Shown here: piece after piece, positions 1 to 3,000 of the stretch
How the letters are laid out: each line of letters begins with the position of its first letter
How positions within the stretch are numbered: the first letter of the stretch is position 1
DNA from: a virus
Taxonomy: Duplodnaviria; Heunggongvirae; Uroviricota; Caudoviricetes
Strand: one strand, 5' to 3'
Virus record (IMG/VR): IMGVR_UViG_2529293069_000015
Coordinates: 1-18,695 of that record
DNA: 18,695 nt
Position numbers: made by a program

Positions 1-3000
1 TTGTGCCTTTGCTATACTTTTCATGTCAATATTTCCTAAGCCGATTTGTTGATAACGAAGCCCTGACTGTTACAGCAGTTGGGGCTTCAACTTTCTGCTC
101 TATCAGTTATATCTTTCCCTTCGTACACTTCACCTATATTGCTAATGCTGGCAGAACATCCAAGATACTTGTATCTTATGATGTCAAACACGCAGTCACT
201 ACACAGCATCCGACCTGTTTCTTTAGAGTAAATGTATGTTTGATCAGCGTCTGATTCGCTAATGCCGCAAAAAACAACATTCTTTACTCATACCGTTATC
301 CCCTCTCTCTTCAGGCTGTCCAGCAATCGCTTAATCACTTGCGTATTTTCATGAAAGGAGATCACTCAATAACTTCCATCGAGATCGGGTAATAACATTT
401 GAACAGATCGCTGAATAACATCGATGGAGATCACTTTTGACTCATTTTGTTATTCAGTGATCTCCATCAATGTTATTGGAACTTCACAGGTGTGTTGATC
501 TGTATCTTTTGCCATTCCGGTAAAGGATACCTATGCCAACAGTTCCAATTTCTATGAGAAAACTTAAAGAAATTCTTAGGCTTAAATACGGTGTTGGACT
601 CAGCCATCGACAAATTGGTCGTAGTCTTGCAATCTCCCCTTCCGTTGTATCCAGATATGCTAATCGGGCGGCTCAACTTGGCATAAAGCAGTGGCCCTTA
701 CCTACAGGATGGGATGATACAAAACTAAAACATGCGTTCCTTCAGACCCAGGTTAAGATGAAGAAGCACTCTCTGCCTGACTGGGCTACAGTACACCGGG
801 AACTGCGTAATAAATGCGTGACGCTGCAGCTACTCTGGGAAGAATACTGTGAGCGTAATCCAGGCGGTTTTTACAGCTATAACCATTACTGCCGGATGTA
901 CCGTGAATGGCTCAAAACCACTTCACCATCAATGCGTCAGGTACATAAAGCTGGCGAAAAACTTTTCGTTGGATTGGACACCGTCAGTGACGGGCGGGCA
1001 CTGCTGCCCTTCCCGTTCATCTCAAAACCGCTGCCGTCAATCGGGTATGCCTGATATTCCCGCCCCTGCCAGGTGACCGCCTTCCCTTTTTCATTCAGCT
1101 CATTGCAGAAAAAATACCGCTCACCACCCTGCACCGTCAGGTCGATTTCCCAGAGCACCACCCGCGGTGACTGCTCTGATTTAACCGACTCGTTCAGGCT
1201 TTCTTCATGAATATTCTGCATCAGTTCACCACCTGCTCAATCGTACAGCTGAAATCACTGTACCGGGCGTTATCCGTGACGCTCCACTCCCGGCACACCA
1301 CCCTCACCGTCCGGTTATGTTTCGGCGGTCGCCACAAAAAGGCACGGTAACCACCATGCCAGGATAAAAATTCATCCAGCCAGCACCGGGTCGCCTCATC
1401 CGTCACCCGGAATACCGCCTGAAATGTCTTCAGTTGAGGATTCAGCCCTGTGGGGCGGCGCTGTTCATAACCGTCACCAAACCGTACCCTCGCCACCGAC
1501 GGTTTCTCACTCACCTGCATCCCTTCACGCGGGACCAGATGCAGCGTTTTTATCTCAGCCACTCAGCATTCCTCCGTCACGTCGCATGGACAACATCACC
1601 GCCTGCACACGCTGGTCAATCAGTTGCACAAGGCTGCCCGCAGCTTCCGGCCCTATCTGGCCATTAGTCCCGTCATTCTGAATGGCGATATGGTAGACCG
1701 GGGAATACACCAGACCCGCACTACCGTTCATACTGCCCACCGCGCGCACACCCAGCGAGCCATCCGCCGCCCGGGTCAGGGGCATAATGGCTTCAGGACC
1801 GGCCTCCCCCATCAGCCCCGCCCCTTTTGCAAAGGCAAAGTACGTGGGCGTATCCACAATACTGTTGCTGTACGCACTCAGGTTTGCCGAGGTATACACG
1901 CCGCCTTTTGCATTGGCCACCGCCCCGCCCAGCCAGTCACCAATGCTGCCGAGAAATCCTCCTGCACCGGACATACTGTTTGCCGCCGTCCTGATCCCGT
2001 TGACAATCGCGGCATTCATAAGAACTTTTGATATTTCCTGTAGCACTGATGAGGCCCAGCTGCGCCATTCCACTTTATTTCCGTTCAGCATCTCCGTGAT
2101 GTTATTCACCATCCCTGAGATACCCTCCGTCGCAAGCTGTGCTGCCTGTGAGGCGTAATCGGACGCATTATCCACCCAGTTACTGAATCCCTCCTGCAGC
2201 CCTTTCTGCCAGTCCGCACGCTGCACATCCGATTCGGCATAAAAGGCTGCCTGGTCCTTAAGGCGTTCACTCAGATACTGCGCGTTCTGTGCCAGAGCCT
2301 GTCTGTAAAAATCCTCACTGATATCCCCGGTCTGATACTGAGACTGAAGGTCCGCATCCTTCTGGCGGAAGCTGTCGCGGATCTGCTGCAACTCCCGCAT
2401 GCGTTCTCTGGCTCGCTCCCCCTGCCCGTACCCCAGCAGTTCAGCATCATTCGACGCACGCGCAGCCGCATTCTCATTCTTCAGTGTCTCTTCCCGGGAT
2501 CGCAACTGTTCCCGGATTTTTTGCTGGTCAATCAGGGTCGCGTTACGCAGCAGTTCCTGCTTCTGCATCTCCGTCAGGGTTTTCAGTTCACCCAGCGCTG
2601 TCTGGTATTTCAGCTTCGCCAGCTCTGTATTCTGCCCCACCAGTGCCAGTTGCTCTTTCTGCTGCTTCAGCAGCCGGGAAAAACTGTCTTCCGCTTTTTC
2701 CGTCTCTGATTTTCCACCCCGGGATTTGGGTTTATTCGCCTCGTTATTGCGCCAGGCTTCCAGGGCATTACTGATATAACGTTGTCTCGCCTCCTGATAC
2801 GGATCACCCACAAAACCGAGGTCATCCGCCGCATACCCCAGTCGGACACGCTCTTTTTCTTCCCCTTTCAGTCTGGACAGGGCCAGCTCACGCTCTGTTT
2901 TTGTCAGGGCACTCTGCTGTTTATCATCCAGGGTGGCCTGCGGCAGCCGTAACGGTACATTCACCAGTCCCTGACGCTGCTGAAGCAGTTCATTCCCCAG

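Follow-up and report, generated by a model that had tools for sequence, protein, structure and literature searches.

A fragment of ISEc12 joins a truncated tail gene L to the remnant of an antirepressor module in a lambda-like prophage

The mnt, arc, sar, and ant organization known as immI, or the ant moron, has been described in P22-like phages (PMC2629481), and lambdoid prophages of Escherichia coli O157 Sakai that carry insertion sequence (IS) insertions, deletions, and frameshifts can be packaged nonetheless with help from co-resident prophages (PMC2669165). Here we describe a locus in an 18,695-nucleotide stretch of viral DNA (positions 1 to 18,695 of IMG/VR record IMGVR_UViG_2529293069_000015; hereafter the window), where a fragment of the IS21-family element ISEc12 lies between a truncated copy of the minor tail gene L and what is left of an ant moron. 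This arrangement very probably arose by insertion of ISEc12 into a lambda-like prophage of the E. coli O55/O157 group, followed by a deletion of ~2884 bp.

An intact relative is present in E. coli O55:H7 USDA5905 (locus L002), where RefSeq gives the order M, L, a divergent gene for an 84-residue Arc-family protein, a gene for a 50-residue Arc-family protein, Ant, K (C40 peptidase), I, J, Lom, and tail fibers. It shares with P22 immI the divergent mnt-like gene, arc, sar antisense to the ant leader, and an ant product with a P22AR C-terminal domain, but places the module in a long-tailed lambda-like tail operon, between L and K, whereas that of P22 is upstream of the tailspike gene; the long-tailed Shiga toxin (Stx) phages 1717 and YYZ-2008 likewise have the module between L and K. 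The window keeps only sar, the start of ant, and 16 codons of arc. Compared with the pool of defective O157 prophages (Sakai Sp, PMC2669165), the prophage is of the same kind, being lambda-like, effector-carrying, disabled by IS insertion, deletion, and frameshifts, and surrounded by near-identical sisters that could complement it. Its scar, however, is confined to a single clone, present in 1 of 5426 complete genomes and in 16 draft samples, and involves ISEc12 rather than the IS629 typical of O157.

Truncated istA and L genes at a blunt junction

A preliminary description of this DNA had placed a truncated L gene against a truncated IS21-family left end carrying the 5′ part of istA, and tblastn and DNA identity confirm this observation with small coordinate corrections. 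The IS match, proposed earlier to lie in a region starting at position 300, begins at position 340, from where it runs ungapped to 971 and is base-for-base identical to positions 1-632 of both full-length (2581-bp) ISEc12 copies that we compared, from E. coli S88 (L003) and Ecol_545 (L004), annotated in RefSeq as 'IS21-like element ISEc12 family'. The same segment has 99.4-100% identity to sequences annotated as ISEc12 in >1400 genomes. Both full copies begin with TGCGTATTTTCATG and end with AATACGCA, and are flanked by 5-bp target duplications, CCCTG in S88 and TCACT in Ecol_545. The fragment spans the left terminal inverted repeat (TGCGTATTTTCATGAAAGGAGATC) together with the sub-terminal repeats, and extends over the 5′ part of istA. 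Multiple terminal repeats are typical of IS21-family ends, and those at 350-478 are putative sites that, from what is known of the family, we presume IstA to bind.

The retained part of istA amounts to 146 codons plus 1 nt of 513, close to the ~145 codons estimated previously. Transposase similarity within 533-968 is evident from 100% identity to IstA residues 1-146 and from a match (E 3e-22) to positions 1-120 of the 294 in the IS21 family transposase profile NF033546, which at 79.5 bits is below the cutoff of 160. Pfam gave weak generic helix-turn-helix (HTH) matches only (Sigma70_r4 and HTH_38), and the assignment was settled by NCBIfam together with DNA identity. The resulting chimeric open reading frame (ORF), IstA′, has no substitutions relative to the full ISEc12 copies and keeps the N-terminal HTH region, but not the DDE catalytic domain. 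No match to IstB was found in the window, the right terminal inverted repeat is absent, and the match stops at IS position 632, such that only 24% of the element is present. Having a single end and lacking both the DDE domain and IstB, the remnant is predicted to be a dead, immobile fragment. The presumed target also lacks its second copy, the far boundary being L DNA without TCACT. At both the window and the Ecol_545 insertions (L004 3003-3007 and 5589-5593), TCACT is preceded by AA; the common target may hint at a target preference, or may be a coincidence (two of the three copies examined).

The L gene is likewise truncated. In a tblastn search with L of the intact relative (232 amino acids), the sole match was to residues 1-83 (minus strand, 1221-973), with nothing in other frames. 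The ORF that remains (L′) matches positions 1-73 of 224 in TIGR01600 (111 bits), well short of the full-length family profile, and positions 3-61 of 206 in PF05100, and its L residues 1-83 are 99% identical to the intact L genes of sister prophages. The intact relative's L aligns end to end with lambda gpL (PDB 8iyk_L, residues 1-232, E 5e-123), compared with which the window lacks residues 84-232 and its ORF ends after 11 foreign codons, making it a pseudogene. Homology to L had been reported to stop at about codon 84, at 968/969; the truncation is real, although the break falls at 971/972, after 83 codons plus 1 nt. The E-values of all matches are 0 or near 0, and chance is therefore excluded as their source.

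At the base level, the right junction reads CGTTG/GATTGGACACC (which begins GATTGG), a blunt join of IS position 632 to position 1 of L codon 84 with zero shared bases. Full ISEc12 continues beyond position 632 with ATTACTG, and L002 has ...GAACA ahead of GATTGG; because both differ from the window, the junction is without microhomology. The left junction at 339/340 reads AATCACT/TGCGTATT and is ambiguous by one T, with the ISEc12 start placed at 340. BLAST had suggested junction overlaps of 4 bp (972-975) and 9 bp (332-340), and base-level inspection rejected both; they result from gapped extension and from the Ecol_545 copy happening to have the same TCACT target.

The first ~300 bp, previously left unassigned, belong to the antirepressor module: positions 1-339 hold the start of ant, the sar RNA, and the 3′ end of arc, and 1-340 are 100% identical to L002 8001-8340. 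The sar RNA lies directly opposite the ant leader and ribosome-binding region, and no match to mnt was found in the window. The left part is thus a remnant of a P22 immI-like ant moron between L and K, and, as the sar match shows, the L-K moron carried by these enterohemorrhagic E. coli (EHEC) prophages comprises a complete immI-type module. An unassigned spacer of ~195 nt (93-287) separates sar from the arc stop codon; it contains minus-strand ORFs of 34-40 amino acids only, has no Rfam match, and is 100% conserved in the O55:H7 relative.

The window stops 24 nt into ant, and the tail region does not end there as had been proposed. E. coli O157 strain 493/89 (NZ_CP038412) has a prophage at 1.29 Mb (L001) that is identical to the window over 1-1074, with the first difference at window position 1075, and to the left of the window start it continues with a full-length ant, intact K (C40 peptidase), I, J, lom, and two fiber genes, followed by espW/espM2. 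L002 has the same order, also with full-length ant, and RefSeq puts no pseudogene flag on the five tail genes downstream in 493/89. That K and I have no match in the window, as with the absence of J and fiber genes, is a window-edge effect. The earlier claim that the element cannot make complete tails stands in that a prophage with this scar cannot supply its own gpL, and so no tail tip on its own, but K, I, J, and the fiber genes are not lost in 493/89.

The intact arrangement (M-L-mnt-arc-sar-ant-K-I-J) is present, at a coverage of at least 80%, in 302 of 5426 complete E. coli genomes, and the scarred one solely in 493/89. The exact chimeric ORF also occurs on two short contig types in NCBI draft assemblies (2 and 14 samples); these span both junctions, match the window at 99.8% with two differing positions each, and a draft contig reaches 124 codons into ant. 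In all, at least 17 assemblies of a single clone have the scar. GTDB species-representative genomes and JGI metagenome contigs were scanned for the exact right-junction 32-mer, which was absent from both, and a literature search did not find the scar described among the matches listed for ISEc12; the paper on O157:NM closed genomes refers to 493/89 solely in connection with its plasmid. The junction sequences are clone-specific and could serve as a lineage marker. In 493/89, RefSeq labels both fragments 'incomplete', one as an IS21 family transposase and the other as minor tail protein L, and the scar, both parts of which are already annotated as pseudogenes, is ordinary prophage decay.

A probable two-step history and its alternatives

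The ancestral minus-strand order would have been H-M-L, then mnt divergent from arc-sar-ant, then K-I-J-lom-fibers. A complete 2581-bp ISEc12 would have inserted into the 3′ third of arc at TCACT (335-339), with istA directed toward L, and an illegitimate, end-joining-type deletion of ~2884 bp would have run from inside istA into L. From the IS, the deletion would have removed positions 633-2581 (1949 bp; IstA residues 147-513, istB, and the right end) plus the second TCACT, and from the prophage, 930 bp with arc codons 1-34, the arc/mnt-like intergenic region (which, by analogy with P22, would hold divergent Pant/Pmnt), the mnt-like gene, and L codons 84-232. Positions 972-1400 are 98.4% identical to L002 9270-9698, such that L002 8340-9269 (930 bp) is missing between window flanks that are collinear and in the same orientation. 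Because both flanks keep the order and orientation of L002, the geometry is that of a simple deletion, and no remainder of the IS or second target copy is expected elsewhere. The second event is needed because transposition alone does not truncate an IS internally.

Several points weigh against this history. The intermediate, with a full ISEc12 in arc and an intact L, was not found in complete genomes (it would cover 69% of the query, and the second-best coverage was 55%), and we infer the order of the two events. The blunt join tells nothing of the deletion mechanism. K-I-J past ant are seen in 493/89 and relatives, with the window's source genome being outside the complete-genome set, and the copy count in 493/89 (one place) is for IS positions 1-632. 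Read-through, and complementation of gpL by near-identical co-resident lambdoid prophages, are proposed.

The deletion could instead have been made by a second mobile element, for example one of IS629/IS3 type that entered istA, gave rise to an adjacent deletion, and was then removed. We consider this unlikely, and it would give the same end product, with only the mechanism of the second step differing. A blunt junction without microhomology is as would be expected if a transposase cut set one deletion endpoint, O157-group genomes are rich in IS629/IS1203, an IS3-like IS1203 is annotated inside a related prophage, and IS-excision-enhancer (IEE)-mediated deletions occur in O157; however, neither a second IS nor a target duplication or inverted-repeat remnant is present at 971/972, and this route requires an extra insertion plus a clean loss. 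It is very improbable that the missing pieces were simply moved, through an inversion or translocation that broke istA and L, since the flanks are ordered and oriented as in the intact relative, unlike the outcome of an inversion, and IS 1-632 has one place only in 493/89; we found nothing positive in support of such a move. The possibility to which we give the least weight of all is that the join of IS and L is an assembly chimera, a mis-join of repeats in a poor or collapsed consensus. The window is indeed a mosaic of two 493/89 prophages with clusters of single-base deletions (25 of them in 5549-6260), but these quality problems are all to the right of position 1074, and both junctions are crossed by the identical stretch of the complete 493/89 genome and by the two independent draft contig types (16 samples).

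The remnant might also be kept for a function, with the 173-residue IstA′ regulating or inhibiting incoming ISEc12, or with deregulation of Ant through loss of Mnt and Arc altering induction of co-resident prophages. The IstA′ ORF is intact with zero substitutions, neither sar nor the ant start is disrupted, 493/89 has a full-length ant, and at least 17 assemblies of the clone have the scar. However, zero substitutions are equally expected of a recent neutral scar, a consensus scan found no sigma-70-like promoter on either strand of 1-1300, and the presumed Pant region is deleted along with the repressors, and sar, an inhibitor of ant translation, remains. Moreover, because the IS fragment (1-632) matches a single place in 493/89, that strain is without an intact ISEc12, leaving no other copy for IstA′ to act on. 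We therefore think retention for a function very unlikely.

Feature coordinates and quality of the window

The coordinates of the features in the window and in L002 are collected in Table 1. The M stop overlaps the L start at 1221, and H is upstream; M itself is 97% identical to the 493/89 protein. Upstream of M on the minus strand are the tape-measure gene, then G/T, and further head and tail genes, as in a lambda-type late operon.

Table 1. Features of the scarred locus in the window and of the intact antirepressor module in E. coli O55:H7 USDA5905 (L002)
Feature	Sequence	Coordinates	Strand	Content or evidence
ant start	Window	1..24	-	Codons 1-8 (MKSIAKAQ), ATG at 24-22; identity to L002 over 1-340; runs off the window's left edge
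sar antisense RNA	Window	26..92	+	Rfam RF00262, full model 1-68; 66.7 bits (gathering score 43), E 2.8e-13
arc 3′ remnant	Window	288..339	-	Stop codon, last 16 codons (VIKRLLDSLKREGITV), and 1 nt; codons 1-34 gone
TCACT, presumed 5-bp ISEc12 target	Window	335..339		Single copy left
Left-junction sequence	Window	339/340		AATCGCTTAATCACTTGCGTATTTTCATGA
ISEc12 (IS21 family), positions 1-632 of 2581	Window	340..971	+	632/632 identity to the S88 (L003) and Ecol_545 (L004) copies
Repeated GGAGATCAC and AATAACA motifs	Window	350..478		Direct and inverted orientation; repeat search families D1, I1-I4
Chimeric ORF (IstA′), 173 amino acids	Window	533..1054	+	IstA residues 1-146 plus 27 residues from the antisense of L′
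L′ pseudogene ORF	Window	937..1221	-	972-1221 are L codons 1-83 plus 1 nt, then 11 foreign codons to the stop
Right-junction sequence	Window	971/972		GAAAAACTTTTCGTTGGATTGGACACCGTCAG
Minor tail gene M, intact	Window	1221..1562	-	PF05939 positions 2-108 of 108, E 1e-28
Hypothetical right-end junction	Intermediate with full IS			...AATACGCATCACTTCCGAG
ant coding sequence	L002	7146-8024	-	Pfam PF02498 (Bro-N) and PF10548 (P22AR_C) on the full protein
arc coding sequence, 50 amino acids	L002	8288-8440	-	PF03869, E 3e-11
mnt-like Arc-family gene, 84 amino acids	L002	8550-8804	+	Pfam Arc domain
L gene, 699 bp	L002	8821-9519	-	RefSeq annotation

To the right of position 1074, no complete genome matches the window exactly, and the best overall identity is 97.9%. 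Positions 15001-18695 are nearly identical to a second 493/89 prophage, at 2.73 Mb (L007), with two mismatches, both in 18001-18500, and the middle of the window is 92-100% identical to either 493/89 prophage. The window is thus a mosaic, reflecting either a recombinant prophage or a collapsed-repeat assembly. The deletions in 5549-6260 were scored against two related prophages; many are outside homopolymers, and they shatter the major tail gene V across all three frames, which suggests a low-quality or collapsed consensus more than real decay. Another 13 single-base deletions in 11251-11750 split the major capsid gene into several ORFs, and further clusters in 12751-15000, including the terminase region, split genes likewise; these probably have the same cause as those in V. 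The tape-measure gene (ORFs 1555-3060 and 3036-4790) is frameshifted at ~3071 by the loss of 7 bp (CTGCCGC) between CTGCT repeats; the prophage at 2.73 Mb has the identical deletion, and RefSeq likewise gives its tape-measure gene as frameshifted. None of these features touches the junctions, which the complete 493/89 genome and the independent draft contigs confirm.

Predicted consequences for the prophage and its co-residents

After the proposed insertion and deletion, ant would lack its own promoter region and both protein repressors, yet would keep sar, and ant and K-I-J would rely on late-operon read-through. The dependence on read-through is predicted because the consensus scan of 1-1300, which found no promoter, likewise found no intrinsic terminator on either strand; nor does the scan support an outward promoter or polar terminator within the IS remnant. 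As for gpL, the retained part of L is matched at 82/83 residues by the intact L of another 493/89 prophage, and 493/89 has nine places matching window positions 1-1400, such that complementation by a sister prophage, of the kind documented for O157 Sakai (PMC2669165), would be plausible.

There is a slim chance that loss of the Mnt-like and Arc repressors leads to Ant being made upon any read-through across the IS remnant, in 493/89 and the related drafts. If true, the induction or stability of co-resident lambdoid prophages could be altered, including that of a Shiga-toxin phage if one is present. The finding matters mostly for annotation: the espW/espM2 prophage lacks gpL and the antirepressor control genes, and would depend on its sisters for particles.

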